A DNA stretch of 64,000 nt from a bacterium (GCA_037130655.1 JBAXSP010000001.1:101830-165829), one strand, 5' to 3'. Positions 4,265 to 52,550 are shown, numbered from the stretch's first letter. Notes: a model not told the origin generated them from the sequence alone. Numbers and translations: made by a program.

Positions 4265-4804
4265 TTACTTTTTAGAAACGAGTGTTTTTTCAACAAGTCT
4301 ATTGATAATAGCTCTGGATTCTTTTTTGAAATCATTCCATTGGTTTTTATTAATATCATTGGCTTCTATGAGAAAATCTGAAAGCACTTTCAACCAAAAC
4401 TCAGAGGAGTGAATGGCCTTGTTTCTGCAAAAATAAAAGTTGTCATTAAAAATATTTGGATGCTTGTATTTCCTGACATCTTTTCCTTGCATCAAATCTT
4501 TTGTGTAATTTAGATTACTCTCAAATTTTTTTAGCAATAAACCAGTCAAGTCCTCAAATTGAGTATTGATACTTTTCATGTATTGATCGAGATGATCAAC
4601 CATTTTAGTTTTCAATGCTGTAAATTTCAGAGCAACACTGTTGAGATTTTTTTCATAGAGTTTATCTAATTCTTTTTTTGCTTCAGTGATATCATCACCA
4701 TACTTTCCATAGAAAGTGGTGTTTTTCCAATCTTCATAAAAATCTTTAAAAGCCATTTTGGCTTTTTGTTCCAAATCATCAAAAACTGCTTTAAATTCAT
4801 CCAT
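4265..4804 (-). CDS. hypothetical protein (K/E-rich, helical)
   Basis: 179-aa ORF, AT-rich, no recognisable motif, followed by terminator. Confidence 0.5.
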   Translation of the reverse strand: MDEFKAVFDDLEQKAKMAFKDFYEDWKNTTFYGKYGDDITEAKKELDKLYEKNLNSVALKFTALKTKMVDHLDQYMKSINTQFEDLTGLLLKKFESNLNYTKDLMQGKDVRKYKHPNIFNDNFYFCRNKAIHSSEFWLKVLSDFLIEANDINKNQWNDFKKESRAIINRLVEKTLVSKK

Positions 4805-7750: not shown

Positions 7751-8263
7751 TTAGTCTGTTTCGGTTGCATCGTAATCGCTCGAGGTACGTTCCAGTAAAT
7801 CTTGTAATGCTTTTTGCTCTTCTTTTTTCTTATTAAGAAACAATTGTTCTATATCCTTTTGGGCTTCTTTTTTATACACATCAATTCGAATAAGGTGTGC
7901 TGAAAAAATGAACGAACATAGAGCCAAGATACTCGAAAAAATAATACGAACGCCCACCACTGTGACTAATTCAATTTCCCATAAAACAAAAAGATACAGT
8001 AGTAGTACAACCAAACAATCAATAGACCATTGGCTCATCTTTTTTGCAAAAAAGATGATCGGACTATTGATACTGTCCAGCAATTGATCCGATAGATCAT
8101 CGAGCTCTTTGTTTGGTTTGTCAGCAAAGCAAAAACGAGAAACCATTCTTTCTTCTTCTATTTCAGCAAAATCACAGAGAGTTTTTTTATAAGCTTTCGG
8201 TGGCAATAACACCATCTGTGTAAACAAAAAGCCTACAAGCATAACAAAAGCAATATGTAGCAT
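7751..8263 (-). CDS. hypothetical membrane protein
   Basis: 170 aa with several hydrophobic helices. Confidence 0.5.
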   Translation of the reverse strand: MLHIAFVMLVGFLFTQMVLLPPKAYKKTLCDFAEIEEERMVSRFCFADKPNKELDDLSDQLLDSINSPIIFFAKKMSQWSIDCLVVLLLYLFVLWEIELVTVVGVRIIFSSILALCSFIFSAHLIRIDVYKKEAQKDIEQLFLNKKKEEQKALQDLLERTSSDYDATETD

Positions 8264-8323
8264 ATAATTAGTGTACGAGTTTTTTCCTCAAAAACAATAC
8301 ACTATTGGGATGAAATTTTCAAG

Positions 8324-8602
8324 CTACGCATCACCTTCTATTTCCTGTCCCACCACATATTCGCACCCTTCATTCCCTACCAAAGCAGTATGTTTGACTC
8401 CAACAGGTACTTCAATAAACTCACCTGGACCAAGTGTTTGTTCAATCCCACCTGAGAATATTAGAGAACCTTTAGTTACATAAAAAGCTACTCTGCCTTT
8501 GTGGCTATGTTCTTCGTATACAGTCCCTGGTTCATCCGTCCATTCGTACACAATGAGGAATCCCTGGTCTGTTAGGTTTTGTTTTAATAATTCTTTATCC
8601 AT
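8324..8602 (-). CDS. cupin domain protein
   Basis: 92 aa; EEHSHKG...FIEVPVGVKHTA cupin motifs 1 and 2. Confidence 0.7.
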   Translation of the reverse strand: MDKELLKQNLTDQGFLIVYEWTDEPGTVYEEHSHKGRVAFYVTKGSLIFSGGIEQTLGPGEFIEVPVGVKHTALVGNEGCEYVVGQEIEGDA

Positions 8603-8735
8603 AAATTTATTTTACAGAATATTAGTACCTCGTTACATCATTATTTTTAAGTTTCGACAAAATTGGATTTGGAACATTCTCTAGTACTTTTTTTACTTCT
8701 GCGTCAGAAATGATCGTTCTTATAAATGCAACTAT

Positions 8736-8927
8736 TTATTGCAATAATTCTTCTTCATAGGTATTTTCAACAAGCGCAAAACGAACGGTATTTTCTTCAT
8801 CTTGTGCATTTTCTGCAAGTAAAACGATATCATTTTCTATAGCAAATTTACGAACTGTTCCACGGAATTTTACTCCGATAAGATTAGCAGAGACACTGTT
8901 TACTTGATATATATCCCAATAAGTCAT
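8736..8927 (-). CDS. small acylphosphatase-like protein (short, possibly degenerate)
   Basis: 63 aa; VSANLIGVKFRGTVRKFA resembles the acylphosphatase VxGxVQGVxFR motif but the protein is too short for a full domain. Confidence 0.3.
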   Translation of the reverse strand: MTYWDIYQVNSVSANLIGVKFRGTVRKFAIENDIVLLAENAQDEENTVRFALVENTYEEELLQ

Positions 8928-8931
8928 AATC

Positions 8932-9594
8932 CTATTCTACATCAAAAGTACCTTTTACCAATTCTAAAAATTGTCCGTGGGTTTCCGGTTTGTTTTCGTA
9001 GTGCATCGAAATAATCTTTCCGATCTTTTCGAATTTTTGAGCAAAGTCAAATGCTTCTTCTGGGCCAAAAGTATAAAATGTTCCGACAGGCAAAAGAAGA
9101 TAGTCAACTACTAGTTCTGACACGTCGATTTCTGATTCATAGAACATATCACCGGCAAAATAAATATTTTGATCATCAACATTAATCAAAAATCCATAAT
9201 TTTCAGTAATCGGAACAGTTAGATTAGGGCCGTGATCTACAGAAAATACTTGTAGGGTAAAATTTTCATCTTCATATTCTGCCTCAGTTGAAATAATACA
9301 CATATTACTAGCTATCACCGGCTTATCAGCAGGTGAAGCTGTTACTACATCTATAATACTTTGTTCGTGCAGAACATCGTAACAATTTCTAGGTAACAAT
9401 ATTGTTTTTGGATTAAGTTTCTTTATTTGTTCTATAGAAAAGTGGTCACCGTGAATATGAGAAATAAGCATCGTGTCACAACTTATTCCGTCCAATTTTT
9501 CCAATGGAGTTTTGTTGCCAATATCAATCGCCAGACGAAAACCTTTTTCACTTTCTATAATGAAGCCTGATTGTTCAAATTTGGTTATTTTCAT
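8932..9594 (-). CDS. MBL-fold metallo-hydrolase
   Basis: 220 aa; ISHIHGDH (HxHxDH) metallo-beta-lactamase motif. Confidence 0.8.
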   Translation of the reverse strand: MKITKFEQSGFIIESEKGFRLAIDIGNKTPLEKLDGISCDTMLISHIHGDHFSIEQIKKLNPKTILLPRNCYDVLHEQSIIDVVTASPADKPVIASNMCIISTEAEYEDENFTLQVFSVDHGPNLTVPITENYGFLINVDDQNIYFAGDMFYESEIDVSELVVDYLLLPVGTFYTFGPEEAFDFAQKFEKIGKIISMHYENKPETHGQFLELVKGTFDVE

Positions 9595-9597
9595 TAC

Positions 9598-10302
9598 TTA
9601 TTTCTTCGTTGAAGTTGCACTTGTTGCCTCCGCGTCTTTTTTCATTTTAACAAGCGTTGGAATCAATTTTTCGATATCTGCAACAGATTTGAAGCCAGTC
9701 ACTTTTGTTTTGTCATTGATGACCAAAGTCGGAAGTTCTGTGTCTTTGATATCGTAAATACGGAGGAGTGCATTTGATGCAGAAAGATCGAGGTTGTAGT
9801 CGAATGAATACACGCGCAAATCTGGATATTTACTGCGGAGTTCGGTCAACACATATCCTTGTTTGGTACAAAGTGTACAGTTTTCAGCGGTGGTATAAAA
9901 ATAGAACACTGTTGGTGTACGTTTACCACAACGTTCTCCAATCTTTTTTGAAAGCAGGTAGTCTTTGATTTCAAGCAACGTATAGTACTTTTTCAATTCA
10001 ATAACTTCATCACTATATTTCAAATTTTGTTCACTGTAGGCAATCTTATCAGCAATTGAATTCAATTCGTCTGACAAATTTCCCTGTCCAATATCTTCAC
10101 AAGAAAGCTCTGAAAGCAATGAGTATTGCGTTTCTGAAGAGAGAATATCTGTCGCGATTTTATCTTGAACAGTGCGGATCGATTGCAGTTTTTTGTCAGT
10201 AAAAAACCCAGAAAGTGCCCCTGCAATGAGGAACAACAAGATAGTAATAACGAGCACGATGATGTATTTTTTCCAATCTACTTTGTTTTGCATAAAATTC
10301 AT
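9598..10302 (-). CDS. membrane-anchored thioredoxin-like protein (CxxC)
   Basis: 234 aa; N-terminal TM helix; ENCTLCTKQG CxxC in a thioredoxin-like C-terminal region. Confidence 0.5.
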   Translation of the reverse strand: MNFMQNKVDWKKYIIVLVITILLFLIAGALSGFFTDKKLQSIRTVQDKIATDILSSETQYSLLSELSCEDIGQGNLSDELNSIADKIAYSEQNLKYSDEVIELKKYYTLLEIKDYLLSKKIGERCGKRTPTVFYFYTTAENCTLCTKQGYVLTELRSKYPDLRVYSFDYNLDLSASNALLRIYDIKDTELPTLVINDKTKVTGFKSVADIEKLIPTLVKMKKDAEATSATSTKK

Positions 10303-10325
10303 TTTAACATTAATTCTGGTATTTT

Positions 10326-11585
10326 CTAACTGACATTACGCTCCCCTGTCCAACTTGATTCTCTAGACCAAATAGCGTTCCAAACTGACTTGAGAAGCCA
10401 CACCGGCGCCACCACAGAGTAAATGATGACAAAAAGGAAGATATCCCATGAGAGCTTCTTTCGTCCTGGAATCATCGAACGTCCATTGATCAGTGAGAAA
10501 ATGACGAGTGTGTACAAAAGAACTGAAATGAATACTGCCATCTTGGTACTGAAATAAAAGAAGTCGAAAGATACGGTACTAAATGAAAATGACAATCCAG
10601 TTGTATTGATTTGCACAGCTTTGTGTTCAATATATTTCGCCCATTGATAGAACGTGAAAGACAACATAATAATCGTTGCTGAAATCGAAATCATTCCAGA
10701 CGGAATTGTAAAGAGTCCGATGTTGCCATATTTTGAACGAAAGATTAATTCTTTGTAATCGATTGCATTCTTGATGAATCCATAAATCCATCGCACACGT
10801 TGGCGATATAATTTTGGAATTGTATTTGGACTGTTGGTGAAGACATACGCATCTGGTGCGTGTTCGATTTTGTAGCCATGCTTTTGCATACGAAGTGCAA
10901 TCTCTTGATCTTCGGTATTGTGAGCTTTGCGATACGGACCAAGGTTCTCGAACACTTCTTTTCGAAAGATTGAAAACGGACCAGGGGTCACGTGAATAGC
11001 TCCGTTGAATGCGAGCATTTTCTTCATATAGTGCCCCATATCATATTCCACTGCTTGAGCGTACTGTATGAGCGTTTTTGGGTCACGTACGACGATTGAT
11101 GGAGCGACTGCCATCGTATCTTTATCATCAAAATACGTCATAATTCGTTTCAATGCTTCTGGGTGCACTGATGAGTCAGCATCAAGACAACCGACAAAGT
11201 CAGTCGTCAAAGATGCGAGTGCATGATTGAGTGCAGTATGTTTGCCACCATTTTCTTTGGCAAAAAGTGTGATTTGTGGGTGACCGGCAAATTTACTTAC
11301 CACATCCCAAGTACCATCTTTTGAACCGTCATCAACAATACTGATTTTGAGTTTATCTGCTGGATATGAAAGCGAAAGAATTGAATTGATTGTACCCTCA
11401 ACGGTTTTTTCTTCGTTGTAACAAGGCACGACAATAGTCACACTAGGGTAAGTAGTAAGTTCAATATGTTCGGTGCGAATAAGAATATCTTTGCGACGTT
11501 CAAAAAAGGTCACCAAAAAGAAGACTTGGACGTAAACCGCCAAGAAAGCAATACAATAAAAAATGGTCGTTATGACCTGTTCCAT
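10326..11585 (-). CDS. family 2 glycosyltransferase, processive type (QxxRW; PgaC/cellulose-synthase-like)
   Basis: VVPCYNEE, DDGSKDGT, DAD, QRVRW motifs plus C-terminal TM helices. Start taken at MEQVITT; the ORF track's longer ORF to 11699 is probably an artefact. Confidence 0.8.
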   Translation of the reverse strand: MEQVITTIFYCIAFLAVYVQVFFLVTFFERRKDILIRTEHIELTTYPSVTIVVPCYNEEKTVEGTINSILSLSYPADKLKISIVDDGSKDGTWDVVSKFAGHPQITLFAKENGGKHTALNHALASLTTDFVGCLDADSSVHPEALKRIMTYFDDKDTMAVAPSIVVRDPKTLIQYAQAVEYDMGHYMKKMLAFNGAIHVTPGPFSIFRKEVFENLGPYRKAHNTEDQEIALRMQKHGYKIEHAPDAYVFTNSPNTIPKLYRQRVRWIYGFIKNAIDYKELIFRSKYGNIGLFTIPSGMISISATIIMLSFTFYQWAKYIEHKAVQINTTGLSFSFSTVSFDFFYFSTKMAVFISVLLYTLVIFSLINGRSMIPGRKKLSWDIFLFVIIYSVVAPVWLLKSVWNAIWSRESSWTGERNVS

Positions 11586-11678
11586 AGAGCTAAAATACCA
11601 TAAAAAGAGGTTATTTTCAATGCACACAACAGTACATATACACCTTGTTAAGAAATCAAATATGCTAAAATAGTCCAT

Positions 11679-12386
11679 ATGGAACAAAACAAAACACAAG
11701 ACAATTTGTCTAAAACTATCGTGCTCGTCGTACTTATTATTCTTGCGCTGGTTATTTATAAGTCACCCAAGCTTCCACCAAAAGTCACCAAGCCAGCTGA
11801 TACTCAAACACAAACAGCAAACACGGCAGACATTTTGAAATTGCGAAGTGATGACTATGCAAACGGAATCACTGCAAGTGCACAAGTTACTATTATCGAA
11901 TATTCTGATTTGGAATGTCCTTTCTGCCGACTCTTCCACGGAACATTGATGCAAGCAATGCAAAAATATCCAGGAAAAATCGTATGGGTATACAGAAATT
12001 ATCCAATTGAAAGTTTGCACAAAAAAACAAGATTTGAAACCAATGCACTAGAATGTATCGGCGGAATCGGAGGGAATACTGCTTACTGGAATGCGTTGAA
12101 TGAGATCATGGCAACAACAAAATCAAATGACGGACTTGATTTGAGCACTATTCCAACTATTGCAAAAAATGCTGGTGTGTCACAAACAGATTTCGAGCAA
12201 TGTATGACAAACAAAACCTATGACGCAAAAATAATGGCACAAGTAGCTGAAGTACAAGCGCTTGGTGTACAAGGTACTCCATTCTCTATCGTCATCAATA
12301 ATGCCACTGGCGAAACAACTCCAATAATGGGATATCAAAAGTTTGAGAAATTTGATGAGACGCTGCAAAAAATAATTAAGAATTAG
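11679..12386 (+). CDS. DsbA-family thiol:disulfide oxidoreductase (membrane-anchored)
   Basis: 235 aa; N-terminal TM helix; CPFC active site in thioredoxin fold. Confidence 0.8.
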   Translation: MEQNKTQDNLSKTIVLVVLIILALVIYKSPKLPPKVTKPADTQTQTANTADILKLRSDDYANGITASAQVTIIEYSDLECPFCRLFHGTLMQAMQKYPGKIVWVYRNYPIESLHKKTRFETNALECIGGIGGNTAYWNALNEIMATTKSNDGLDLSTIPTIAKNAGVSQTDFEQCMTNKTYDAKIMAQVAEVQALGVQGTPFSIVINNATGETTPIMGYQKFEKFDETLQKIIKN

Positions 12387-22483: not shown

Positions 22484-22850
22484 ATATAAAGGATAGCTTC
22501 TCGTACACACAAAAAATAAAAAACGAAAACACGCAATCTCTGCGTCTTTTTAAATTATTTATTTAAAGAGTGTAAAATCAGCAAAAAAATCGGTAAATTA
22601 ACACACTGATAAAGATCAATTTCACCCACAACTCAATCAATCAATCGTGAAGAAAATATACCAAATCCCCCACCCTCTGTCAATCAGTTATCCACAGGAC
22701 AATTTTTGGGATTATGATATCAGCTCCGCTCGTGGAGAAGTGCTGGCAAAGCACGCATATTTTTGTGGTCAAAAATTGCTTTGCTCGACCAACCGTCTGC
22801 ACAGAGCCTTGCCAACACTTTCCACTCGCTCCGTGAAAAAGCTACAGATT

Positions 22851-25800
22851 TTATAATTTAGAAATAAATTCAACCAAATTATCCATTTCTTTACTATGAT
22901 CATGCCACCAACGAGTTGACCATATTCTATAGACAACAAAACCCATTTCTTTAAGTTCTTTTTGTCTATACATATCATGTGCATAGGCTTCATTTGAAGA
23001 ATGGTATGTTTTACCGTCGCACTCAATTGCTATCTTTTTTTCATTGATATTCAGAACAAAATCAATTCTAAAACCACCTATTTTATGTTGAATAGAAATT
23101 TGATCTTTAGAAAATTTTTCAGAAAGCATTTCATAAACCTCTTGCTCAAAAGGAGATTCTGTTAAACCTTCTTCTAATACAAAATTAGCTCTTGGTGCCT
23201 CATGACTATTTTGTTTAAGACTTTCAAGTATAGACTGAACTCGAGTTATATCACCATTACTAACAGCTTCAGAATAAGCTAAATATGCATAAAAAATACC
23301 TTTCTTGTTATTACCAGTAGATTCTATAATTTGCTCATATCCATGATATTTTTCCTTAGGAACCGAAGTGCAAACGTATACTTTATATTTTGCACGTGTA
23401 ATTAGAACATTAAGAAGCTTATATCCTTTTGTATAATTAACTGGACCAAAACGCTCGAGAAATCTACCATCATCTCCTTTTCCGTAGGTAGTAGAGATTA
23501 TAATTATATCCATTTCATCTCCTTGAATATTTTCAAGATTTTTTATAAAAAGACCTGATTCTTTTATTCCATCTAATATTTTAGCAAAATCTTCATTTTC
23601 AGAACTGAACTTATCCAATGCATCTCTAATTTCATTTCTTTGTTTTAAGTTAAAAGTAGCAATACCTACGGAAGGATAGGTACCGTCTGGTTTAACATGA
23701 ATATCCTCACTTATAATTCTTAAAACTTCTTTTACTTCACTCTCATTAATATTATTTTTATAATGCCCATTAACTTGAACAAGCTCAATAGGAGAATAAT
23801 CATTCATAGCAGGAAACGGAACTAAATTTCCTCCATAAAAAGCTGCGTTTGAAAAATCTATAAGAGCAGGGTGTTTGGAACGATAGTGATAGTCTAAGTA
23901 TGAATAACTTTTTTTAGGTAAATTTTCTGCATAATCGAGAAGTGATTCACTTGATGCAAGTTGTCGCTCCATTTCCTCTTCAGATATTTCCATATCATCA
24001 ATATCTTGATATATAGCATCCGTTGAAACTCCTCCTGTTTCAAAAAAACTTGAAGGTGGCATTTGGTGCTTATCACCTGCAATAACTTTGTATTTTCCGC
24101 GAATGAATGAGGTAAAAACATCTTCTATTCTCAACTGACTTGCTTCATCAAAAATTACCACGTCAAACAGACCTTGTTTTAAAGGAAGCACAGAATCAGA
24201 AGCAACCGGATTTGTAAGTATCACAGGAAAAATGCTAGTGAAAAGATCAAATTCTGATTGAATAATTCTACGTAATGGATTAGCTCTGTCCGAGACTTTA
24301 TTTTTTCTTAAATTATAAAGAAGATTAAAACCATTCTTTCTTTCATAAAGATTTTTTTGATTCTTTGCATTGTCGTCCCAATCACTACGAATTTTCAGTT
24401 TTTGCTCTTTTTTCAATTGATCATAAAGATCTGTGAGTGTTTTAAGCTCTTCATCACTAGTATTCAATGAGCCAATTTTAGATTCATGATTAATCAAAGC
24501 TCCATACAGATACCATGCAGTGTACGCACCTAACCAGTCATCTACACCATATTGACAGAGTGATGAAATTAAAGATTTTTGATTTGAATTCAATTTGTTT
24601 AAATAAAACATCCAACGATAAAATGGTTCATATTCATGAATTTCTTTTTTCAAACTATCAAAAAATACAATCTCCTTTTCAATGTAATCCTTATACTCTG
24701 ATATTCCTTTTATAGAAACAAAATTAATTGGCTTTCTTTTAGTAAATACATCGTAATCATTTATTAAGATATTTTCTTCATCTACAAAATATTTATTTAA
24801 TTTCAAAATATTTTTTATTTTTTCTATAATTAAATTCGACTCCTCGTGTAGTAAATTTAATTTTTCTAAAACTGAAGATATGTTTGTTGTTTCATCAAAA
24901 TTAATCAAACCAATTAATGATTCTTTTTCAGAATCAATTATATTATTATATGTATCAATCTTTAATAAACATGATGTCTTTTTTTCATTTAAAATCTTTT
25001 TTCTTTTGTTAAAAAAAGCTTCAAAAATATCAATATTTTTGATTTTGAGTAATTCTTTTTCTGAATATTTAGTATAATCCTGATAATCATTTAATGTAGA
25101 TATACTCTCTTGTAGTAAATTTTTTATCTTTTGAAAAAAATCTATTCCATTTTTTAAATTTTGTTGATCTGTAATAAAGTACTTACCAATAGAAATATCT
25201 TCTTCTGATAGATTGTTTATTTTTTCAAGTAATCCAGATAATATTTTTTCCTTATTCTTTACAAATTTAGATAAGTTATCACTTGATAATCTTGAATATT
25301 CTACTTTAAATAAGTTTTTATTTATTTCTTTTAGTGCGATAAGATTATTTATATTAAAAGCTTTATATAAATTGGTAGCATTGAAAATTATATCTTTTAA
25401 ATTCAAAAATTCCGTTTCTTCAAACGAATATTTCTCATAATCTAATTGTTCTTCAATTTTAATATAATCATGTTTTCTGCTATTTTGCAGAAAATCTCCA
25501 ATTGTTTCTTTCCAATTCTTACCTACTACTTTTTTAAAAAGTTCTGTATGTTTTTGATTAAAAATATCTCTTAGTCTAAGAAATTTTTTATATTTTAAAT
25601 CAAAATCATTTGAATTGTAGATGTTCCTAGATAGGTTTTCTGCTCGTAGCCTAGCTTTCTTTACAACCTCATTTCTATCTTTATTTACGTCATCTATAAT
25701 TACAATATACTGATCCAACCCAACATCTTTTAAATTCCTATATATTACTTCTAATGCTGTCTTTTTTTCACAAACAACTAGACACCTGCCACCATTTTCC

Positions 25801-26801
25801 AAAGTGTTAGTTATTATTGCTGTTAAAGCCTGACTTTTTCCGGTACCTGGCGGCCCTTGGATAAGTTTTATCTCTGTATCAGTAAAAGAATTTATTAACT
25901 CCTCTTTACTTGGGTCAGTTTTAACAGAACTGACTGTGGAAGTTTGAAAACTTTCAATAACAAGTTTATTATTTTGAAATTCTTCAAGTTTCTTTAGAAG
26001 TTCTTCATTACAGTGAATAATAGATTCTTTTCTAGATTTATATATACCAAAAACAGCTGACCATTGAATCCAAACATTATCTGTTGCCAAAGAATCAAGC
26101 TTCTCTTTACCCGGACAAGGTTCTAACTTAATACTCAATTTACTATTCTCAGAATTAACATTTAACTGAGATAAAATATTATTACAAATATCAATGAGCT
26201 CCTTTTCATTTATTAAATTATCTTCTAAAAGAGATTCGGATAATTGATCGAGATTTATTTGAGCATCACTAGCAACGTGACTTCTCAAAAGTTCATTTAG
26301 TACAATTGGAGAATTTTCATCACGAGTGATGATCCAAGAATTTGTCTTATTGGCCGATTTTTGTATATCTAAATTCCAAATGAGTAGAGGTGCTTTGATT
26401 ACCTTGGTTGGATCACTAGTATCACGTCGAATTAAAATAGGATACCCAATACCGAAGTTTTTTATACCGAACTCAAGAAATTGATCTTCGTTCTCATAAA
26501 CTATGTTATTTAACTTTCTTGATAAAAGAAAAAGGGAATTTTTTTGATTTTCTCCTAATTTAGATATATCAATATTGTCAAAATTAATTTCAAAAGAGAG
26601 CCTTTCTTCACTTAACAATCTTTGTAAAAAATTTAGTGAAGAATCAGGAGATATGGCATCAAATGCACTCAAATCAAGCCGTGAAGCAAATCGCCCAGGT
26701 AGCGCATTGAGATGGATACCTCGACGGTTCCCTACCTTAAGCTTGTTTAACAAACCATTAATAAACTCCTTATTAAAATTGATTTGAGAAACTTCATTCA
26801 T
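22851..26801 (-). CDS. Upf1-like SF1 helicase with DUF4011-like N-terminus and C-terminal DUF559/Vsr-like endonuclease domain (Hhe-like single-gene defence candidate)
   Basis: 1316 aa. Motif I LIQGPPGTGKSQ, motif II VIFDEASQ, III AGDKHQMPP, V IQGDEMDIIIIST, VI NVLITRAK; C-terminal IAIECDGKTYH...YRIWSTRWW matches the DUF559 ExDG..H pattern. Markedly more AT-rich and N/K/I-rich than neighbouring core genes. Confidence 0.8.
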   Translation of the reverse strand: MNEVSQINFNKEFINGLLNKLKVGNRRGIHLNALPGRFASRLDLSAFDAISPDSSLNFLQRLLSEERLSFEINFDNIDISKLGENQKNSLFLLSRKLNNIVYENEDQFLEFGIKNFGIGYPILIRRDTSDPTKVIKAPLLIWNLDIQKSANKTNSWIITRDENSPIVLNELLRSHVASDAQINLDQLSESLLEDNLINEKELIDICNNILSQLNVNSENSKLSIKLEPCPGKEKLDSLATDNVWIQWSAVFGIYKSRKESIIHCNEELLKKLEEFQNNKLVIESFQTSTVSSVKTDPSKEELINSFTDTEIKLIQGPPGTGKSQALTAIITNTLENGGRCLVVCEKKTALEVIYRNLKDVGLDQYIVIIDDVNKDRNEVVKKARLRAENLSRNIYNSNDFDLKYKKFLRLRDIFNQKHTELFKKVVGKNWKETIGDFLQNSRKHDYIKIEEQLDYEKYSFEETEFLNLKDIIFNATNLYKAFNINNLIALKEINKNLFKVEYSRLSSDNLSKFVKNKEKILSGLLEKINNLSEEDISIGKYFITDQQNLKNGIDFFQKIKNLLQESISTLNDYQDYTKYSEKELLKIKNIDIFEAFFNKRKKILNEKKTSCLLKIDTYNNIIDSEKESLIGLINFDETTNISSVLEKLNLLHEESNLIIEKIKNILKLNKYFVDEENILINDYDVFTKRKPINFVSIKGISEYKDYIEKEIVFFDSLKKEIHEYEPFYRWMFYLNKLNSNQKSLISSLCQYGVDDWLGAYTAWYLYGALINHESKIGSLNTSDEELKTLTDLYDQLKKEQKLKIRSDWDDNAKNQKNLYERKNGFNLLYNLRKNKVSDRANPLRRIIQSEFDLFTSIFPVILTNPVASDSVLPLKQGLFDVVIFDEASQLRIEDVFTSFIRGKYKVIAGDKHQMPPSSFFETGGVSTDAIYQDIDDMEISEEEMERQLASSESLLDYAENLPKKSYSYLDYHYRSKHPALIDFSNAAFYGGNLVPFPAMNDYSPIELVQVNGHYKNNINESEVKEVLRIISEDIHVKPDGTYPSVGIATFNLKQRNEIRDALDKFSSENEDFAKILDGIKESGLFIKNLENIQGDEMDIIIISTTYGKGDDGRFLERFGPVNYTKGYKLLNVLITRAKYKVYVCTSVPKEKYHGYEQIIESTGNNKKGIFYAYLAYSEAVSNGDITRVQSILESLKQNSHEAPRANFVLEEGLTESPFEQEVYEMLSEKFSKDQISIQHKIGGFRIDFVLNINEKKIAIECDGKTYHSSNEAYAHDMYRQKELKEMGFVVYRIWSTRWWHDHSKEMDNLVEFISKL

Positions 26802-26842
26802 GGTATTTATATATCTTTTAATTTTATCACACTTAGTTATAT

Positions 26843-27562
26843 CTATCTGTTATTTTTAGAATTCTTCCACTCTTCAATCTTCTTATGGTCTCCTGAGAGT
26901 AGCACTGGTGGGACTTTGTATTTTTTTGTCTTCCCTTCCTTCCCTTTTATTTCAATGATTTCCGGACGAGTATAAAACTCACTTGATGAGACACGTTCTT
27001 CTTCACGAGAATCAAAATTACCGAGCACGCCTTGTACTTGTCGAGAAATAGAATCAATCAAAATCATTGCTGGAATTTCTCCACCAGTCAACACATAGTC
27101 CCCGATTGAAACTTCTTCGATATCAGCCACCCCTTTGGTCAGGTCTTTCAGGATTTTGACTGCACGAGCATCTACTCCTTCATAACGTCCGCAGATCATA
27201 ATGATGTGTTCGTATTTTTTACTCACCGTTTTTGCATACGTTGTATCAAACTTTTTTCCGCTTGGTGAGAAATTGATTATCTTCACTTTTCCTTTTTTGA
27301 TTTTCTTTGTAATAGAAAGCACCGCACGAACAATCGGCTCTGCCATCAATATCATTCCTGGGCCACCACCATATGGACGTTCGTCGATTTGTAGAGAAAT
27401 ATTTCCATCAGGCCAAACTTTGCGATATTTACCAGTCACAAATTTGCGTGGATTCACAAAATCTACTTTGATTTTCTTTTCTTTGATTGCCCGCGCCAAA
27501 ATAGATTCGCCGAGATACGAATCAAACATTTCTGGAAATAGCGTGACGATATGGAATTTCAT
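26843..27562 (-). CDS. trmD: tRNA (guanine37-N1)-methyltransferase
   Basis: 239 aa; SPOUT fold, GRYEGVD and SIGDYVLTGGE motifs. Confidence 0.9.
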   Translation of the reverse strand: MKFHIVTLFPEMFDSYLGESILARAIKEKKIKVDFVNPRKFVTGKYRKVWPDGNISLQIDERPYGGGPGMILMAEPIVRAVLSITKKIKKGKVKIINFSPSGKKFDTTYAKTVSKKYEHIIMICGRYEGVDARAVKILKDLTKGVADIEEVSIGDYVLTGGEIPAMILIDSISRQVQGVLGNFDSREEERVSSSEFYTRPEIIEIKGKEGKTKKYKVPPVLLSGDHKKIEEWKNSKNNR

Positions 27563-28170: not shown

Positions 28171-28462
28171 TTTGCTTTCTTTTTGTTGTAATAGATTTTT
28201 TCGGAAGTACGTTTTTCTTTGTTCCTTCGATAACTTTTTGGTGAACCAAGAAGTTATGAACTGTTTGTGAAGGTTGTGCACCGTTCGCAATCCAGTGAAG
28301 TACTCGGTCTTTTTTCAAAGTAACGAGATCTCCTTTTGGAGCGTATGAACCCAATATTTCTAAAAACTTTCCACTTTTTGTACTGTTTTTTGAGTCAGTC
28401 AAAACAACGCGAAATTGGGCGTCGTTCTTTCTTCCTGTTCTTAGTAGTCTGATTGCTAACAT
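28166..28462 (-). CDS. rpsP: 30S ribosomal protein S16
   Basis: 98 aa; MLAIRLLRTGRKNDAQFRVV S16 signature. Confidence 0.9.
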   Translation of the reverse strand: MLAIRLLRTGRKNDAQFRVVLTDSKNSTKSGKFLEILGSYAPKGDLVTLKKDRVLHWIANGAQPSQTVHNFLVHQKVIEGTKKNVLPKKSITTKRKQK

Positions 28463-38127: not shown

Positions 38128-38688
38128 TTATTGCTTGATACGTTCTTTTATTTTCCAAAGGATCCATTTCTGGTCTTCCGTAAGGATTTTACTAAGTTTT
38201 TCTAATGGAAAAAGGAAGGGTTCTCCCTTGTTAGGATCTGAGAAATTTTTTGTAAATTCTCCAAAATATGAATTAACGATATATACATAATGTCGTTGTT
38301 TTTTGTTTTGCGACATGATTGTATTCATAACTAATTGTTCAAGATCATCTGAACTAGCAGTAACACCGACATCATTAAACAAAGCACGCAGAGCTGTTTC
38401 TTTTTGTGATTCAACAATTTTTTCGTCAAGAAAATCATTTCCGATTATCTTGTCTTTGTTACAAGGGAGAACTAGTATATATAGTTTTTTCTTTCCTTTT
38501 TCTGCATTAAAAAGAACAACATATGAACAGTACTTTGAATCTTGCGATTCACTGTTCGGTAATACAATATCTGAAAATCCATGAGTCTCCAAATATTGCT
38601 CAACTTCGGAGATTGTATTCATGAATTTCATGATAGTAGTAACTATTAAGTCCTTGTAAAGTTTACTTATTTTGGTCAATTTTGTCAA
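38128..38688 (-). CDS. hypothetical protein
   Basis: 186-aa AT-rich ORF, no recognised motifs. Confidence 0.5.
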   Translation of the reverse strand: MTKLTKISKLYKDLIVTTIMKFMNTISEVEQYLETHGFSDIVLPNSESQDSKYCSYVVLFNAEKGKKKLYILVLPCNKDKIIGNDFLDEKIVESQKETALRALFNDVGVTASSDDLEQLVMNTIMSQNKKQRHYVYIVNSYFGEFTKNFSDPNKGEPFLFPLEKLSKILTEDQKWILWKIKERIKQ

Positions 38689-43597: not shown

Positions 43598-46396
43598 CTA
43601 TTCTGCAGGTACAGGTGTATCATTTTGAGGTGCGTTTTCTGTCTGAGGCACAGCTTCAGGAGTCGGAGGTGTTACGAGAGGAGCACTTTCTTCGCCTGTC
43701 TGAACAGTTTCATCTACAGGAGAATTTCCTCCATTGGTAACCGGGGCATTTCCACCACCTTGCTGTTGCAAGAGTTGCTTCAATTGATTTTCATCGACAC
43801 AAGTTTGACCAATACATAATTGTTTTGTTTCAACACGATCTGCGTGAATAATTTGCGCATACAAATCTAAAATAGTATTTTGTGTATTTGCCAAAAATTG
43901 TTTGACCAGACTTCCAAGTGAATTTGGATTCGCCACATCAAGTGATGTAATTGGTGTGATTTTCAAATCAAGTTCTTGAATTGATTTCGCAAGCAATGGG
44001 ATCATATCGATATAGTACACACCGTGTGGAGTGACTCCATCTGCTTCATACACCACATAATCTTTGTTAACTTTTTCAACTTCTTCTGCAATGAAACCAG
44101 TTCGAAGTTTATCAGTACCGTTGTATTTGAAATTGACCGGACGAAGTGCATTGACTGTATCAAGCGCATTGAGTGGTAATGATACGATATCGTGTTTGAA
44201 TCGCTGTGACGACACCGCACAAGAACCAGAATTATCACGAGAAAGCGTGTTACTACCATTAATACAAACAACATCCCCTGCACCGGAAGAAATATTAAGA
44301 CCTGAAAAAGTAATAGCACCTGATGAAGTAAGACCTGTTGCTGAGGTAATTGTCCCGTTTACATCTACAGCAAAAGCTGTACCTCCAACAGAAAGTGTCC
44401 CATCAGTAGAAATATTACCACTTGCATCAACCTCAAAAGCATCATTAGTTCCGACGGTAAGTAAACTATTTGGAGTAGCATCCCCAATTCCAAAGTAACC
44501 ATTTTCATTCATTACAACCTTTGCGCCTGTATCAAAATTACGAAGTACTATATCTGAAGTACCAAGTCCTACTGTTTGCAAATAAAAAGCATCGTCGTTT
44601 GCATTATAATAACTTGAAGCATAAGACCCGGTATTACTTATGTTCGGATATAAATTAATAGTTGGACTATTACCACCATTACCACCAAGTACAATATTTC
44701 CCCCACCGGTAACCAAAACAGCAGCAAACAAAGGATTGCTTCCAGGACTATTTACCGTAAGTGCAGCATCTGGTGTAGTTGTACCAATTCCAACTTTCCC
44801 TGAACCGGTAGCGACGAGTGTTGCTCCTGTATAATTACCATTAGTTACACTCATACCAGTACCTCCGAGGGCTACCGTACCGTCAGCATTTACTTTAAAA
44901 TTTGCGAAGCCTGAACCCCAACTATCACCCGCATTAAGAGCGGTTTTAAAACGAAACTGTCCTTCGTCTCCAGCAAAATAGAATAATCCTCCAGTACCAG
45001 TCTCCCGTGCAACAAAATTCGTGCCATTAAAATATACGTTCTCACCCAACCATGCATTGTTTACCGCATATGTTTGTAATTCAATCGAACCAATGCGTGC
45101 TTGCGAATTTGTTTGATTGATTCCAGCAATATGCAAATTTGAAGTCGGAGTATTTGTACCAATACCCAAAAAATTATTACTATCATCCCAAAAGAAATTA
45201 TTACTATCCTCTGCAATTGATGTACCATCAAAAAACAATACGGAACCAGCTTGTAAAGAAGGGAGTGCGTCTTGCTTGGCATTGAGTGCATTTTGCAAAT
45301 CTGTTTGAGAAGATATCGTCCCTGTAATACCACCCCAGCTTCCGCCACCAATGTTACCACCATTAATAGTTACCGGTCCTTTGAAATCAATATTTCCATT
45401 TCCGTCTACCTGCATTCTTATGTTTCCATATCCATCAGCAAGAATAATATTATTGTTTGATGTCGCAATACCTGAGCCATCATATCCTCCGATGATCACA
45501 TTGTATTGCCCAGTAGTGATCAACTTTCCAGCCTCCCATCCAAGTGCGACATTTTGAATACCTGTAGCATTTTTAAGGGCACGATACCCAACACCAATAG
45601 AATCACTATTTGTTGTATTGCTATACAAAGCTTCAACACCAACAGCAACATTATAATAACCAGATGTATTAGAACGTAATGCACTTGCACCAATAGCAAT
45701 ATTACTGTTACCAGTTGTTGAATATAGAGCATCAGAACCAATTCCAATATTAGCCTGACTACTACTAGCGTTGCGAAGGGCATTATTTCCAATTGCTATA
45801 TTGTTTACAAAATGATCTGCACCAGAAAGTGCATTAGCTCCTATCGCAATACTTTGTTGCCCATCAGTAGAACTCGCCATTGTGTTTTTACCTAATACTG
45901 TATTCAAAAATCCACTTGTTGCACCAACATTGATACCGTTCACACTTAAATCAGAAGAAAATGTTTTTGCTCCAGCAAATGTTTGTGTTCCTGTGGTCAC
46001 CAAACCACGAGCAGTTGCACTAGCACTTGGAAGGTTAAAGGTATGAACACTACCCGATGAAGTAATCGAAAAATCAGTACCTGTTGTTGAACTTGCAAAT
46101 GTTTGCGTTGAACCGGTCAAACCATTGAGCGATGAAATGCCTGAACCCGAAAGTGTAGCCCAACTAGCGGTCGTACCATCAGTAGTTAAATACTTTCCAC
46201 TATTACCAGTTTGATCTGGAATAATGGAAACGATACAGTTCGTACTTCCTGGTGTACAAGTCGGGTCTAGTGTCTCGCCTTGAGAGTAAGGATTGGTCGG
46301 AGGTGCTGCGAAAATGTGTAGCGAAAGACTGAACACCGCAAAAAATGCGAGTGAAAAAAGAAGTTTTTTGTGCTGTTTAAATACACTTAGTCCCAT
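43598..46396 (-). CDS. large secreted Gly/Ser/Thr/Asn-rich beta-helical surface protein with C-terminal tail-fibre intramolecular chaperone (peptidase S74) domain
   Basis: 932 aa; signal peptide; repetitive G/N/T/S beta-strand repeats; C-terminal SSQRFKHDI...GFIAEEVEKV...YIDMIPLLAKSIQEL resembles the autoproteolytic chaperone domain of phage tail fibres/endosialidases. Confidence 0.75.
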   Translation of the reverse strand: MGLSVFKQHKKLLFSLAFFAVFSLSLHIFAAPPTNPYSQGETLDPTCTPGSTNCIVSIIPDQTGNSGKYLTTDGTTASWATLSGSGISSLNGLTGSTQTFASSTTGTDFSITSSGSVHTFNLPSASATARGLVTTGTQTFAGAKTFSSDLSVNGINVGATSGFLNTVLGKNTMASSTDGQQSIAIGANALSGADHFVNNIAIGNNALRNASSSQANIGIGSDALYSTTGNSNIAIGASALRSNTSGYYNVAVGVEALYSNTTNSDSIGVGYRALKNATGIQNVALGWEAGKLITTGQYNVIIGGYDGSGIATSNNNIILADGYGNIRMQVDGNGNIDFKGPVTINGGNIGGGSWGGITGTISSQTDLQNALNAKQDALPSLQAGSVLFFDGTSIAEDSNNFFWDDSNNFLGIGTNTPTSNLHIAGINQTNSQARIGSIELQTYAVNNAWLGENVYFNGTNFVARETGTGGLFYFAGDEGQFRFKTALNAGDSWGSGFANFKVNADGTVALGGTGMSVTNGNYTGATLVATGSGKVGIGTTTPDAALTVNSPGSNPLFAAVLVTGGGNIVLGGNGGNSPTINLYPNISNTGSYASSYYNANDDAFYLQTVGLGTSDIVLRNFDTGAKVVMNENGYFGIGDATPNSLLTVGTNDAFEVDASGNISTDGTLSVGGTAFAVDVNGTITSATGLTSSGAITFSGLNISSGAGDVVCINGSNTLSRDNSGSCAVSSQRFKHDIVSLPLNALDTVNALRPVNFKYNGTDKLRTGFIAEEVEKVNKDYVVYEADGVTPHGVYYIDMIPLLAKSIQELDLKITPITSLDVANPNSLGSLVKQFLANTQNTILDLYAQIIHADRVETKQLCIGQTCVDENQLKQLLQQQGGGNAPVTNGGNSPVDETVQTGEESAPLVTPPTPEAVPQTENAPQNDTPVPAE

Positions 46397-49562: not shown

Positions 49563-52550
49563 CTAGTTAAAAATCCTTTTAGACAAAGCACAGTAAGGAC
49601 ACTCATCAGCTCCCCCGCCCCACGGTTTGAAATGACATTCATTTTCTATCCATGTTCCATTTTGCAATGCTTGATTGTATTCACCGATATCGCGTTTCAA
49701 TAAATCAATTTGCTCTTGTGATATATGAGCACTGTATAATGCGTTTTTGTCTTTAGTTTCTGCTTCTAAGAAAAGCAATTTTGAAATAGACACTGACTCA
49801 TCTTTTTTGCCACCACGCACCAAATACGAATACATAGCCAATTGACGCATATAATCAGACAACCGTCCTTCGTCGGTCATTTTCTCTATCTCACTTTTTG
49901 TTTTTGGCTTACCTGTTTTGAAATCAGTCACGACAATGTCTCCATTTGGAAATGTTTCAGTCAGATCCAACTTACCGTACATTTTAAGTTGTGGAAAATC
50001 TGAATCACGGAATTGCAACGATCGTTCTGATTGATGATCTTTTGCCAAATGTTCATAATAATTCTTGATCCAATTACTAACTGCTTTTTCGGCAGATTTC
50101 GATAAGTCTTTTAATTCTTTTTTGTCTTGTACACCTTCTTTCAGTAGACACTCCTCAATTTTTGCTTTGAGTATTTTGTCGGTCGGCAACTTCTTTTCTT
50201 TCAAAATAAATTCAATCGTACTGTGTACTGCAGAACCGAGCGCAAGACTCACTCCTTTGACTTCTGGCAGTTTCAAGAAATTTCTAAAATACCATTTCCA
50301 TGGACACTCAAAGAAATTGTTGAGTAGCGTGACAGTCGCATTTGTTTGTTCAAAATTCTCTTTGACGTATTGTTTCAATGCTTCGAGTGTTTCAGTTTTT
50401 TCGACTGAAGTAATTTCAGTATAAATTTTGGGCCCATGCACCAGTAACTCCGTTTCTGTTTGTTCGGCTGTTTTTTCGATGAAATGTTTTTTGTCTAAGT
50501 CAGCAACAATACGAGCAAGCTCAAGTTCTCCTCCACCATAATTTTCTTTTGCGTAAGAAATTGTACACAACTCTTTTGCGCGAGTAATTGCCACATACAG
50601 TTCACGTTTTGCAGCTTCGACGGTGCGTTCATTGATTTTTTCTTTGACCTTTTCTGGCAACGTAAATGCACTGCGTTTTTCACTCATCAGTGTTTGTTCA
50701 TTCATATGTGCAATCCACACTGCTTTGTACTCCAAACCTTTTGAACGATGGAGTGTCATAACTTGAATACCTGAAGTTCCACCGAACGTCGCAAGTTCGA
50801 TACTGTTGCCGTATGATTTCAGTCGTTCGATATATTCCAAAAATTCGGGCAACGTCGCACCAACGTGTTTGGTCTCATATGCAAGTGCAGTATGAATAAA
50901 ACTTCGTACTACTTCGACAGTATGTAAAAGCTCATCATGACTTGTCACCTTGTTTATCAAAAGTTCATTTCCAATTGTTGCGACAACCAACGACAACTTT
51001 TCATATGTCAGCGTACTGATCCAAGATTCAAGTTGCTTGCCCCATGTGGCAATTTCATTTTGATCATCAAATAATCCATTTGATTTTCCATTGTCAGTAA
51101 GTTCTCCGATTGTTAGATATTGCGGTTTTGTATTTCGTAAGAACGTATGTGCCATCATTGGTGGAATACCGCTTGTCTTGTCGAGTAAACTCGCAGACAG
51201 CGACACTGCATTAAATGGATCAGCGACAATCGAAAGTACCCGAAGCAAACTTTCTGTTTCTGGTTTACTAAACAGTGAGATATTGCCGGCTGAAGAAACA
51301 TGAAGTCCCATCTGTGACAAAATACTGACAGCGTTTCGAACGTGACGATTTTTCGGTACCAACAGTGCACATTCATGTTCTGGAATACCTTGTGCTATTT
51401 GTTGCTTGAAATACAATCCTGCACCGAGAATCTCATCGCGTTCGTACACATATTGCGCAAGCGTGATCCCTGTATCACCTGCACTGTTACTGCGGAGTTT
51501 TTCTTCAGTGATAGAACTACTGAGTAAGTCATCAGCTAGCGCGAGAATTGGAGAGGTTGAACGGTAATTTTCGGTCAATGTAATCAATTTAGCCTTTCCA
51601 AAAAATGTTTTGAATTCAGTAAAATAATTGATATTTGCACCAGAGAAACCATAGATAAGTTGGCGGTCATCACCCACGACGAAAATGTTTGGCGTAAGCC
51701 CCATCGATTCGAAATCTCCCCAAACAGCTTTCAAGAAATTGTTCTGCACCGCCGAAGAGTCTTGATGTTCGTCCACCAAAACATATTGATAATTTTCATA
51801 CACATCAGCACGAGCTTCATCTGATATTTCAACCACTCGCACCGCAAAATAAAGCACATCATCATAATCCATCAATCCGAGACCACGTTTGCGTTCTTCG
51901 TAGAGTTTATAAAATTGCACAACTTCTTTGGTTCGTTCAAGACTTTCGATTTTCTTCTCGACATCTTTTTTCAAACTTCCCTTACTTTCTCCGCGACTAG
52001 AGATGCTATCTGGATTTTCTTTCAGTTCCTTGATTTCAGTTTCGATATATTCCAAAAATTGCTCGTGTGTGAGCCGTTCGCGCTTCATCAAAGAAATCAA
52101 ACTTTTGAGTTCACCGAAATACATTGCTGGATTGGTACGTGGGCGCAAATGTTCCCAGTCATTGTCGTGCAAAATTTCATCCACGAGAAAAACTCCTTCT
52201 GCATCATCAATCAATTTTGGTTCTATTTCAAAACCAATCAAATCAAAATGTTTTTGTACCAAAGAAATTGCAAATGAGTGAAAGGTGTTGATGACGACAT
52301 CATTTGCCCGTGTACCGATATATGATTCCAAACGATCACGCATTGCAGTGACTCCTGAGCGAGTAAATGTCAGACACAAAATACCACTTGGACCAATGTC
52401 GGTCTTTTGTAAAATGTTGGCAATACGAAGCGCAAGAACTTGTGTCTTGCCCGTTCCTGGGCCTGCTACCACCATCACCGGACCGTCGAGTGTATCGACA
52501 GCGAGTTTTTGATTGGTATTGAGTTTGTTGTAAGCGTCAGCAAATTGCAT
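49563..52550 (-). CDS. UvrD/PcrA-like SF1A helicase with C-terminal RecB/Cas4-like PD-(D/E)xK nuclease and Cys cluster (AddA-like)
   Basis: 995 aa; VVAGPGTGKT Walker A, helicase motifs; C-terminal GKLDLTE...VVTDFKTGKPK nuclease motif and CPWKW...ECHF...CPYC cysteines. Confidence 0.85.
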   Translation of the reverse strand: MQFADAYNKLNTNQKLAVDTLDGPVMVVAGPGTGKTQVLALRIANILQKTDIGPSGILCLTFTRSGVTAMRDRLESYIGTRANDVVINTFHSFAISLVQKHFDLIGFEIEPKLIDDAEGVFLVDEILHDNDWEHLRPRTNPAMYFGELKSLISLMKRERLTHEQFLEYIETEIKELKENPDSISSRGESKGSLKKDVEKKIESLERTKEVVQFYKLYEERKRGLGLMDYDDVLYFAVRVVEISDEARADVYENYQYVLVDEHQDSSAVQNNFLKAVWGDFESMGLTPNIFVVGDDRQLIYGFSGANINYFTEFKTFFGKAKLITLTENYRSTSPILALADDLLSSSITEEKLRSNSAGDTGITLAQYVYERDEILGAGLYFKQQIAQGIPEHECALLVPKNRHVRNAVSILSQMGLHVSSAGNISLFSKPETESLLRVLSIVADPFNAVSLSASLLDKTSGIPPMMAHTFLRNTKPQYLTIGELTDNGKSNGLFDDQNEIATWGKQLESWISTLTYEKLSLVVATIGNELLINKVTSHDELLHTVEVVRSFIHTALAYETKHVGATLPEFLEYIERLKSYGNSIELATFGGTSGIQVMTLHRSKGLEYKAVWIAHMNEQTLMSEKRSAFTLPEKVKEKINERTVEAAKRELYVAITRAKELCTISYAKENYGGGELELARIVADLDKKHFIEKTAEQTETELLVHGPKIYTEITSVEKTETLEALKQYVKENFEQTNATVTLLNNFFECPWKWYFRNFLKLPEVKGVSLALGSAVHSTIEFILKEKKLPTDKILKAKIEECLLKEGVQDKKELKDLSKSAEKAVSNWIKNYYEHLAKDHQSERSLQFRDSDFPQLKMYGKLDLTETFPNGDIVVTDFKTGKPKTKSEIEKMTDEGRLSDYMRQLAMYSYLVRGGKKDESVSISKLLFLEAETKDKNALYSAHISQEQIDLLKRDIGEYNQALQNGTWIENECHFKPWGGGADECPYCALSKRIFN

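Follow-up and report, generated by a model that had tools for sequence, protein, structure and literature searches.

A 64,000-nucleotide (nt) stretch of contig JBAXSP010000001.1 (assembly GCA_037130655.1, positions 101830-165829; below, the window) contains, between trmD and rpoB, a gene encoding a stand-alone helicase-nuclease of 1316 amino acids (aa). The host is a Paceibacteria/Nomurabacteria-type Patescibacterium (candidate phylum Patescibacteria). We found that the trmD-rpoB junction, at 22511-26842 of the window, is a variable-cargo hotspot across genomes of this type. The helicase gene is strain-specific cargo acquired at this hotspot, since none of 80 relatives carries it there and the slot of the sister genome, L007, holds an unrelated open reading frame (ORF). 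The sequence of the protein places it in an unnamed compact clade (approximately 1,150-1,750 aa) of the superfamily that holds Hhe, ProA and the candidate PDC-S37, and there is little doubt that it is a horizontally acquired accessory member of this Hhe-like superfamily. The complete explanation that we favour, namely a horizontally acquired stand-alone helicase-nuclease that resides in a variable slot and serves as single-protein defence, has somewhat better than even chances of being correct.

Using TrmD as a probe, we collected 80 loci from relatives labelled Paceibacteria, Nomurabacteria, 'Saccharibacteria' or Patescibacteria, with approximately 20 kb around trmD in each. In 56 of these 80 relatives trmD is followed by rpoB-rpoC on the same strand, and in most of them RNase R and the genes rpsP-KH-trmD are found upstream. 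The order rpsP-KH-trmD-gap-rpoB-rpoC is thus ancestral for the lineage, and the absence of rimM and rplS is ancestral as well and unrelated to the insertion. The gap between trmD and rpoB in the 56 relatives varies from 166 bp to 6.2 kb. It is empty (166-319 bp) in 19 of them and contains 0.4-6.2 kb of mutually unrelated cargo, mostly with GC content below that of the flanks, in 37. The sampled cargo includes tail-fibre-like Peptidase_S74 proteins, M29 peptidases, DUF1015, a Pif1-like helicase and orphans. In relatives with no rpoB nearby, the region is rearranged or contains giant surface proteins. No homologue of the helicase was observed at the trmD locus of any of the 80 relatives (tblastn, E <= 1e-5, within the same 20 kb).

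An earlier note, made from the sequence of the window alone, had described the gene as inserted between trmD and rpoB, at the point where the canonical rpsP-KH-rimM-trmD-rplS operon would continue. The insertion is confirmed, as the occupant of the gap differs or is missing in relatives. However, no canonical operon has been interrupted, because rpsP-KH-trmD followed by rpoB-rpoC is the ancestral arrangement, with an empty gap in the 19 genomes mentioned above. The note had also raised the possibility of a housekeeping orthologue conserved at the same locus, and the synteny comparison with its 0 of 80 relatives rejects it. Finally, the note spoke of a defence gene appended to this operon. The gene is indeed appended, as acquired cargo, but the slot is not specific for defence and accepts variable cargo in general.

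The sister genome L007 is very close to the host: the RpoB, KH and TrmD proteins are 98%, 99% and 91% identical, respectively, and the flanks are 86-94% identical as DNA. In place of the 4.1 kb of the window, its slot contains 1414 unrelated bases with an orphan ORF:

L007:3147-4040, plus strand: orphan ORF, 297 aa; GC content of the gap 0.289; no Pfam or PADLOC match

We also scanned 19 cargo and downstream ORFs of the relatives by Pfam, and 10 of these 19 by PADLOC as well, and obtained one PADLOC match. It comes from the gap of relative L070, where a Pif1-like helicase that ends in an HTH_40 tail (L070:11373-13037, plus strand) matches the RecD-like and PDC-S68/PDC-M16A models. The possibility that the slot is a defence island was considered and rejected, as the other ORFs scanned are surface proteins, peptidases, DUF1015, orphans and rearranged housekeeping genes.

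The alignment with L007 defines the boundaries of the acquired segment. This segment and the adjoining features are as follows:

22737..26861: segment acquired relative to L007, 4125 bp; blastn homology stops at 22736 on the rpoB side and at 26862 on the trmD side
26843-27562, minus strand: trmD, adjoining the helicase gene on its 5' side
26802..26842, minus strand: spacer of 41 nt from the trmD stop codon to the helicase ATG; no terminator detected
22655..22683, minus strand: predicted sigma-70-like rpoB promoter, TTGACA, 17-nt spacer and TG-extended TATATT, 11 of 12 matches
22531-22545, minus strand: terminator-like hairpin followed by a T-run, approximately 20-35 nt upstream of the rpoB start, in the leader conserved in L007
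19319-22510, minus strand: rpoB, adjoining the helicase gene on its 3' side

The helicase gene is the only one in the segment, which otherwise comprises a few codons from the end of trmD and 114 bp of flanking DNA on the 3' side. A search for direct or inverted repeats in the flanks yielded only AT-rich matches attributable to chance, and no tRNA, Rfam family, recombinase, integrase or transposase was found at the insertion. As no integrase, transposase or attachment-site (att) repeats accompany the gene, it was probably introduced by homologous recombination in the conserved core genes on either side. The spacer after trmD is short and contains no terminator, and thus the gene is probably co-transcribed with rpsP-KH-trmD by read-through; neither a Shine-Dalgarno-like sequence nor a clear promoter of its own was seen upstream of it. 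The predicted rpoB promoter lies in the leader conserved in L007, downstream of the insertion boundary, and therefore rpoBC would keep its own promoter. The hairpin at 22531-22545 may represent an element of the leader or an attenuator, but may also be fortuitous.

The helicase ORF occupies positions 22851..26801 of the minus strand, starts with ATG and has an uninterrupted frame of 1316 aa, exactly as described in the earlier note. At 28.5% GC, the probability of 1316 stop-free codons arising by chance is approximately 1e-49, as calculated from base composition (about 8% stop probability per codon). The note had further remarked that the gene is richer in A/T and in Asn, Lys and Ile than its neighbours. 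Indeed, its GC content is 0.285, compared with a mean of 0.388 for the 41 other ORFs of the window (z = -3.6), and the GC content at third codon positions (GC3) is 0.180 compared with 0.317 (z = -3.3). Both values are the lowest among the 42 ORFs, so a composition indistinguishable from that of the genome is rejected. The fraction of Asn, Lys and Ile in the protein is 0.277, compared with 0.204 in the other ORFs (z = +2.2). The gene order on the minus strand is rpsP, the KH protein gene, trmD, the helicase gene, rpoB, rpoC, with RNase R divergent and upstream. The Logan assembly of run SRR12676975, which was built separately, has identical gene order and identical junctions. However, this run probably represents the same sample as the metagenome-assembled genome, and thus it is not an independent biological replicate.

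The protein has a DUF4011-like N-terminal domain, a split Upf1-like helicase of superfamily 1B (SF1B) and a C-terminal Vsr/MTES_1575 nuclease. The segments given below were delineated using Pfam, an alignment of the 120 best homologues, and AlphaFold models built on the same alignment:

25932..26801, minus strand: N-terminal alpha/beta domain, divergent DUF4011, aa 1-290 (Pfam, motifs, AlphaFold); motifs KLKVGNRRGIHLNALPGR (aa 20-37), DQFLEFGIKNFGIGYPILIRRD (aa 106-127) and KAPLLIWNLDI (aa 136-146), at least 90% conserved in the 120 homologues
25614..25931, minus strand: helicase domain 1A, N-terminal part, aa 291-396 (Pfam, alignment, AlphaFold); motif I (Walker A) GPPGTGKSQ, aa 316-324, with K322; motif Ia VVCEKKTAL; conserved IDDVNKDR
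24312..25613, minus strand: all-alpha insert splitting domain 1A, aa ~397-830 (AlphaFold, alignment, composition)
23952..24311, minus strand: helicase domain 1A, C-terminal part, aa 831-950; motif II VIFDEASQ, aa 882-889, with D885 and E886; motif III GDKHQMPP, aa 909-916
23352..23951, minus strand: helicase RecA-like domain 2A, aa 951-1150 (Pfam AAA_12, structural neighbours); YHYRSKHPALIDFSN, GIATFNLKQRN, motif V QGDEMDIIII (aa 1093-1102) and motif VI NVLITRAK (aa 1131-1138)
22854..23156, minus strand: Vsr-family (MTES_1575/DUF559) endonuclease domain, aa 1216-1316 (Pfam, conserved residues); ESPFE (E1215, E1219), GGFRIDF (D1247), IECDGKTYH at aa 1259-1267 (E1260, D1262, H1267) and YRIWSTRWW at aa 1291-1299

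This three-part architecture had been proposed in the earlier note, and each part is matched above threshold by Pfam. The nuclease is the clearest, with MTES_1575 (PF18741) at 2.9e-26 over aa 1218-1313 (91.8 bits, gathering score 38.2) and DUF559 at 4.9e-07. The helicase is matched by AAA_12 (1.6e-16, aa 952-1144) and AAA_11 (1.6e-13). DUF4011 is the weakest: the match is marginal, with 25.3 bits against a gathering score of 22.2, and covers aa 93-173 only; among the homologues, only some carry a precomputed PF13195 match. All motifs quoted in the note (GPPGTGKSQ, VIFDEASQ, GDKHQMPP, QGDEMDIIII, NVLITRAK, IECDGKTYH and YRIWSTRWW) are present. All SF1 motifs are intact and at least 90% conserved in the 120 homologues, as are the nuclease motifs ES.FE, R.DF, ECDG..YH and YRIWS, and the N-terminal region is also strongly conserved.

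The fastest-evolving and most AT-rich segment is the helical insert (GC 0.217), which is rich in Lys, Leu, Ile and Asn. Identity to the aligned homologues is 11-22% at aa 451-750, compared with 50-70% in the adjoining catalytic cores, and the spacing between motifs I and II varies from 431 to 784 aa across the family. Nevertheless, the insert is modelled at high confidence as long helices of 25-40 residues each. The model of aa 290-1316 has a predicted local distance difference test (pLDDT) score of 89 and consists of a Upf1-like motor, the insert of approximately 430 aa, domain 2A, a helical linker and a Vsr-fold nuclease. The N-domain (aa 1-300) is modelled as an alpha/beta fold with a pLDDT of 85 and a predicted template modelling (TM) score of 0.80, and had no significant match in the Protein Data Bank (PDB), the best one having E = 0.06 and TM < 0.2. 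No solved Hhe-like structure was found, by sequence or by fold, in the PDB copy searched.

The structural neighbours of the helicase core are SETX, UPF1, Dna2, Sen1, IGHMBP2 and nsp13 (Foldseek E-values from 6.5e-10 to 1e-6), and a sequence search of solved structures also produced Sen1 (6.5e-10) and IGHMBP2. Two RecA-like domains, motifs I, Ia, II, III, V and VI, and an insertion in domain 1A all agree with membership in the Upf1-like SF1B helicases. The protein shares with UPF1, SETX/Sen1, IGHMBP2, Dna2 and nsp13 the core fold, the motifs and the insertion of accessory domains into 1A, but has an all-helical insert where those helicases have a 1B barrel and a 1C stalk, and nothing links it to RNA surveillance or to the processing of Okazaki fragments. 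A nuclease joined to the motor is found in Dna2 as well, but there it is located at the N-terminus, is of the PD-(D/E)xK type and carries an Fe-S cluster, whereas here it is C-terminal and has a Vsr fold. Membership in the Vsr/MTES_1575 family is borne out by the PF18741 score and by the C-terminal fusion to an SF1 helicase. Anantharaman et al. 2013 defined this type of domain, and the founding MTES_1575 carries a pair of DUF3320 winged helices (PMC3710099); no DUF3320 tail follows the nuclease domain in our protein. Intact motifs and confident models suggest that the protein is enzymatically competent.

The earlier note had taken this architecture for that of the single-gene anti-phage system Hhe. 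The relationship at the superfamily level holds: PADLOC gives Hhe at 2.4e-73 (245 bits), and the NCBIfam Hhe model (NF042953) gives 1.7e-93. Membership in Hhe itself does not, as the NCBIfam score is 314.2 bits against an equivalog cut-off of 2000, the protein is shorter by approximately 500 aa, and the alignment is confined to the C-terminal ~530 aa (query 787-1315, profile 1189-1682 of 1797) and the P-loop. The best NCBIfam match is ProA (NF058533; 7.1e-120), also below the membership score (401.7 bits, cut-off 1500). The best PADLOC match is PDC-S37 (PDLC05009; 3.2e-124, 414 bits; PADLOC cut-offs were not to hand). It is not full-length either, since query positions 793-1315 align with profile positions 854-1340 and the overall match covers approximately 640-1350 of 1550 positions. 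The matches to Mokosh MkoA and MkoC (4e-27 and 1e-24) cover nothing beyond the helicase region, SF1 helicase domains being all that is in common.

Similar scores were obtained for other proteins with the same N-domain. Seven diverse family members score 289-318 bits with Hhe and 411-443 bits with ProA. PDC-S37 is the best PADLOC match of these seven and of five longer proteins, most of the 12 scoring 385-471 bits and P0137 only 176, over profile positions ~290-1430 at most; with a model of 1550 positions, true members would probably score above 385-471 bits. The longer proteins (1,540-1,760 aa) were considered as a possible link to true PDC-S37, but they score only ~176-468 bits. As the seven family members and the five longer proteins score alike, the whole clade appears to be a sister group and not a set of divergent Hhe, ProA or PDC-S37 proteins.

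Hhe (HheA; Gao et al. 2020; NF042953; PDLC02194) is also a single protein with an AAA_11/AAA_12 helicase and a Vsr-family nuclease, and residues corresponding to its acidic nuclease motifs appear intact here (ESPFE, RIDF, ECDG). Its N-domain is of the DUF4011 type, to which that of the window protein can barely be assigned (25 bits). Protection by Hhe has been demonstrated for the phages lambda, T3, T7 and PhiV-1, and the nuclease mutant E1731A is inactive in defence (bioRxiv 10.1101/2022.06.16.496414). The match to ProA ('anti-phage protein ProA') spans the second half of the helicase and the nuclease, but the profile has 1903 positions compared with 1316 aa here. PDC-S37 is a single-gene phage defence candidate of PADLOC v2 and resembles the window protein in the C-terminal half only. 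We found no literature on the naming of ProA or on PDC-S37 itself, only the general paper on phage defence candidates (PDC).

More than 1000 homologues were found, in several classes of Patescibacteria, Asgard archaea, Alphaproteobacteria and Bacteroidales. The nearest one is 55% identical and comes from other lineages, and a metagenome pattern scan produced no closer relatives. A search with the N-domain among 1.84 billion representatives yielded 358 clusters at 50% identity. This domain is N-terminal in every full-length match, and the proteins are approximately 1,150-1,750 aa long. In this exhaustive search, made with aa 1-300 as a single sequence, the best 150 of 358 matches included nothing longer than 1758 aa, and no protein of Hhe size was reached. 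Some members, noted among P0013-P0044 and P0080-P0112, carry additional elements. N-terminal zinc-ribbon-like extensions of the CxxC...CxxC type occur in 30 of 120 members. Approximately 13 of 120 have an extra C-terminal tail, with ECDG 91-212 aa from the C-terminus compared with a median of 59, and some tailed members match the GreA/GreB C-terminal domain PF01272.

The genomic neighbourhoods of eight homologues have no conserved partner gene and all differ from each other. A shared trmD/rpoB context among homologues was considered and rejected, as none of them has it. Nor are these eight homologues, or the helicase gene of the window, embedded in BREX, DISARM or Type I restriction-modification (RM) loci, although methyltransferases are found near one homologue. 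The latter neighbourhood contains a resolvase, a Bub-like ubiquitin system, AAA_13 and methyltransferases, another contains a transposase and a serine recombinase, and yet another contains SieB and Ltp and adjoins smpB. The homologue P0018 from Kaiserbacteria (L087, CP060229.1, ~8001-12275) lies in an island with rve and two Y1 transposases, a Panacea (SocA) toxin-antitoxin, DUF2779, a reverse transcriptase of the diversity-generating retroelement (DGR) type with bAvd, and a ResIII helicase. The GC content of the gene is below that of the flanks in all seven homologue loci compared (7/7). The wider superfamily is represented in 520 plasmid records, 221 of them conjugative. By contrast, the 50,697 phage records searched contain only five places with a match, all weak or partial, and the 2.9 million viral contigs contain 24 loci, all of them distant; a few loci are in predicted prophage regions.

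The other genes of the window are housekeeping ones, including dnaG, rpoD, SMC, gyrB, thrS and the following:

49563-52550, minus strand: AddA-type helicase-nuclease (UvrD, UvrD_C, PDDEXK_1), the host's own recombination enzyme

Several further observations were made in the window. Two more ORFs with low GC content and no Pfam match, at 4265-4804 (minus strand, GC 0.296) and 38128-38688 (minus strand, GC 0.310), may be foreign or fast-evolving genes. At 43598-46396, the minus strand encodes a protein of 932 aa that has the endosialidase/tail-fibre chaperone domain Peptidase_S74, and proteins of the same type (1211 and 697 aa) occur in the trmD-rpoB gap of relative L040. A sub-threshold Rfam match to GcvB at 28213-28433 of the plus strand, antisense to rpsP (27.8 bits, gathering score 42, E = 0.004), is most likely due to chance.

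A role in defence against phage or other invading DNA is the best reading of the available evidence and is slightly favoured over its absence. It is suggested by the homology to Hhe, ProA and PDC-S37, the conserved catalytic residues, the patchy taxonomy, the frequent carriage on plasmids with near-absence from phages, the GC content lower than that of the flanks in 7/7 homologue loci, the lack of a conserved partner gene, and those neighbourhoods that are rich in mobile or defence genes. A candidate mechanism may be outlined. The N-domain, possibly together with the fast-evolving helical insert, would recognise a foreign nucleic-acid structure or a phage-induced state, the insert having a role in specificity or regulation. 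The Upf1-like SF1B motor, whose motifs are intact, would translocate 5' to 3' on a single strand with ATP, as expected from its family membership. The C-terminal Vsr-fold nuclease would then cut DNA, by analogy with E. coli Hhe, where a glutamate of the nuclease site is required for defence. The gene would have been brought in through the flanking core genes by recombination and would be expressed from the rpsP-KH-trmD operon by read-through. It is tempting to extend this to the clade of ~358 clusters as a separate anti-phage family, with the N-domain and the hypervariable insert of ~430 aa as a sensor or specificity module, spread among ultra-small Patescibacteria, archaea and other bacteria by recombination into hotspots flanked by core genes and expressed by read-through; we consider this generalisation rather doubtful.

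Several considerations weigh against a defence role. The function of the clade is deduced by comparison with its relatives, and the trigger, the substrate (DNA or RNA) and the polarity of its members are predictions from sequence. Neither Hhe nor ProA is matched at anything near its member threshold, and most of the similarity resides in the helicase and nuclease halves, which are generic. PDC-S37 belongs to a set of 145 candidates that are themselves predictions, made by 'guilt-by-embedding' in BREX, DISARM and Type I RM loci. Some neighbourhoods of homologues are plain housekeeping. The slot is a general spot for variable cargo with no enrichment in defence genes, and thus the location gives no support for defence. 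Finally, P. aeruginosa has a large DUF4011 gene that belongs to the core of every isolate and flanks the defence hotspot cDHS1 (PMC10250203), and therefore the architecture alone does not imply accessory defence. That gene resembles ours, by description only, in its size and its position at the edge of a variable region near translation-related genes; however, it is fixed and marks the border of the hotspot, whereas here the gene is the variable cargo.

The most serious of the other explanations, although an unlikely one, is that the gene serves a mobile element, by competition between elements, exclusion of plasmid or conjugative DNA, or element maintenance, and is present here as a stranded remnant. 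Relatives from the superfamily are indeed frequent on conjugative and mobilisable plasmids, transposases and recombinases directly adjoin close family members, and distant relatives occur in a few predicted prophage regions. However, the acquired segment is a single gene with no recombinase, repeats or tRNA target, and many homologues stand alone among chromosomal genes. Mechanistically this function overlaps with defence, and the two are hard to separate. The absence of a Shine-Dalgarno-like sequence and of a clear promoter, together with a codon composition far from that of the host and the turnover of cargo at the trmD-rpoB junction in reduced genomes of this type, would also be consistent with an inert passenger, recently transferred, not expressed or functional in this host and heading for decay. 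This is improbable, as the frame of 3.95 kb is intact despite a stop probability of ~8% per codon, every catalytic motif is retained, and, with no terminator after trmD, transcription is likely.

Less probable still is a housekeeping repair or replication helicase-nuclease of the Dna2 or RecD/AddAB type needed by the lineage. In its favour, the helicase core has Dna2 as one of its structural neighbours, the DUF4011 gene of P. aeruginosa is core, and our gene lies between core genes with which it is probably co-transcribed. On the other hand, this reading is largely refuted by synteny, as the gene is missing from the trmD locus (approximately 20 kb) of all 80 relatives, including the sister with 98% identical RpoB. 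In addition, the gene is an extreme compositional outlier, its family has a patchy taxonomy, no other sequence found is more than 55% identical to the protein, and the host already encodes an AddA-type helicase-nuclease (49563-52550). The least credible explanation is a chimera of assembly or binning, in which an AT-rich segment of another organism was mis-joined. The drop in GC content is sharp and limited to the segment, and the sequence is known from one sample only. Against this, two assemblies, although probably of the same sample, give identical junctions, the junctions lack any repeat at which a mis-join might have arisen, the breakpoints fall exactly where 37 of the 56 relatives have other cargo, and in 7/7 loci the family member is richer in AT than its host.

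We therefore retain single-protein defence by acquired cargo as the preferred reading. What is plausibly new is the unnamed compact clade of single-protein helicase-Vsr nucleases, whereas the Hhe-like kind and acquired cargo in a variable slot are known. The pattern of a defence-like gene that occurs sporadically in a variable slot is an expected one, and current ideas stand. Reduced-genome Patescibacteria have few recognised immune systems. If the defence reading is true, a compact and easily cloned clade of single-gene helicase-nucleases would join the Hhe-like group, and such bacteria would acquire genes of this kind at a recombination hotspot between core genes. As the fold of the N-domain is predicted confidently and has no solved relative, this domain is a reasonable structural target for the study of target recognition in Hhe-like proteins. 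Whatever the function of the gene, the trmD-rpoB junction is a practical marker for mining accessory cargo in the Paceibacteria/Nomurabacteria-type lineage.

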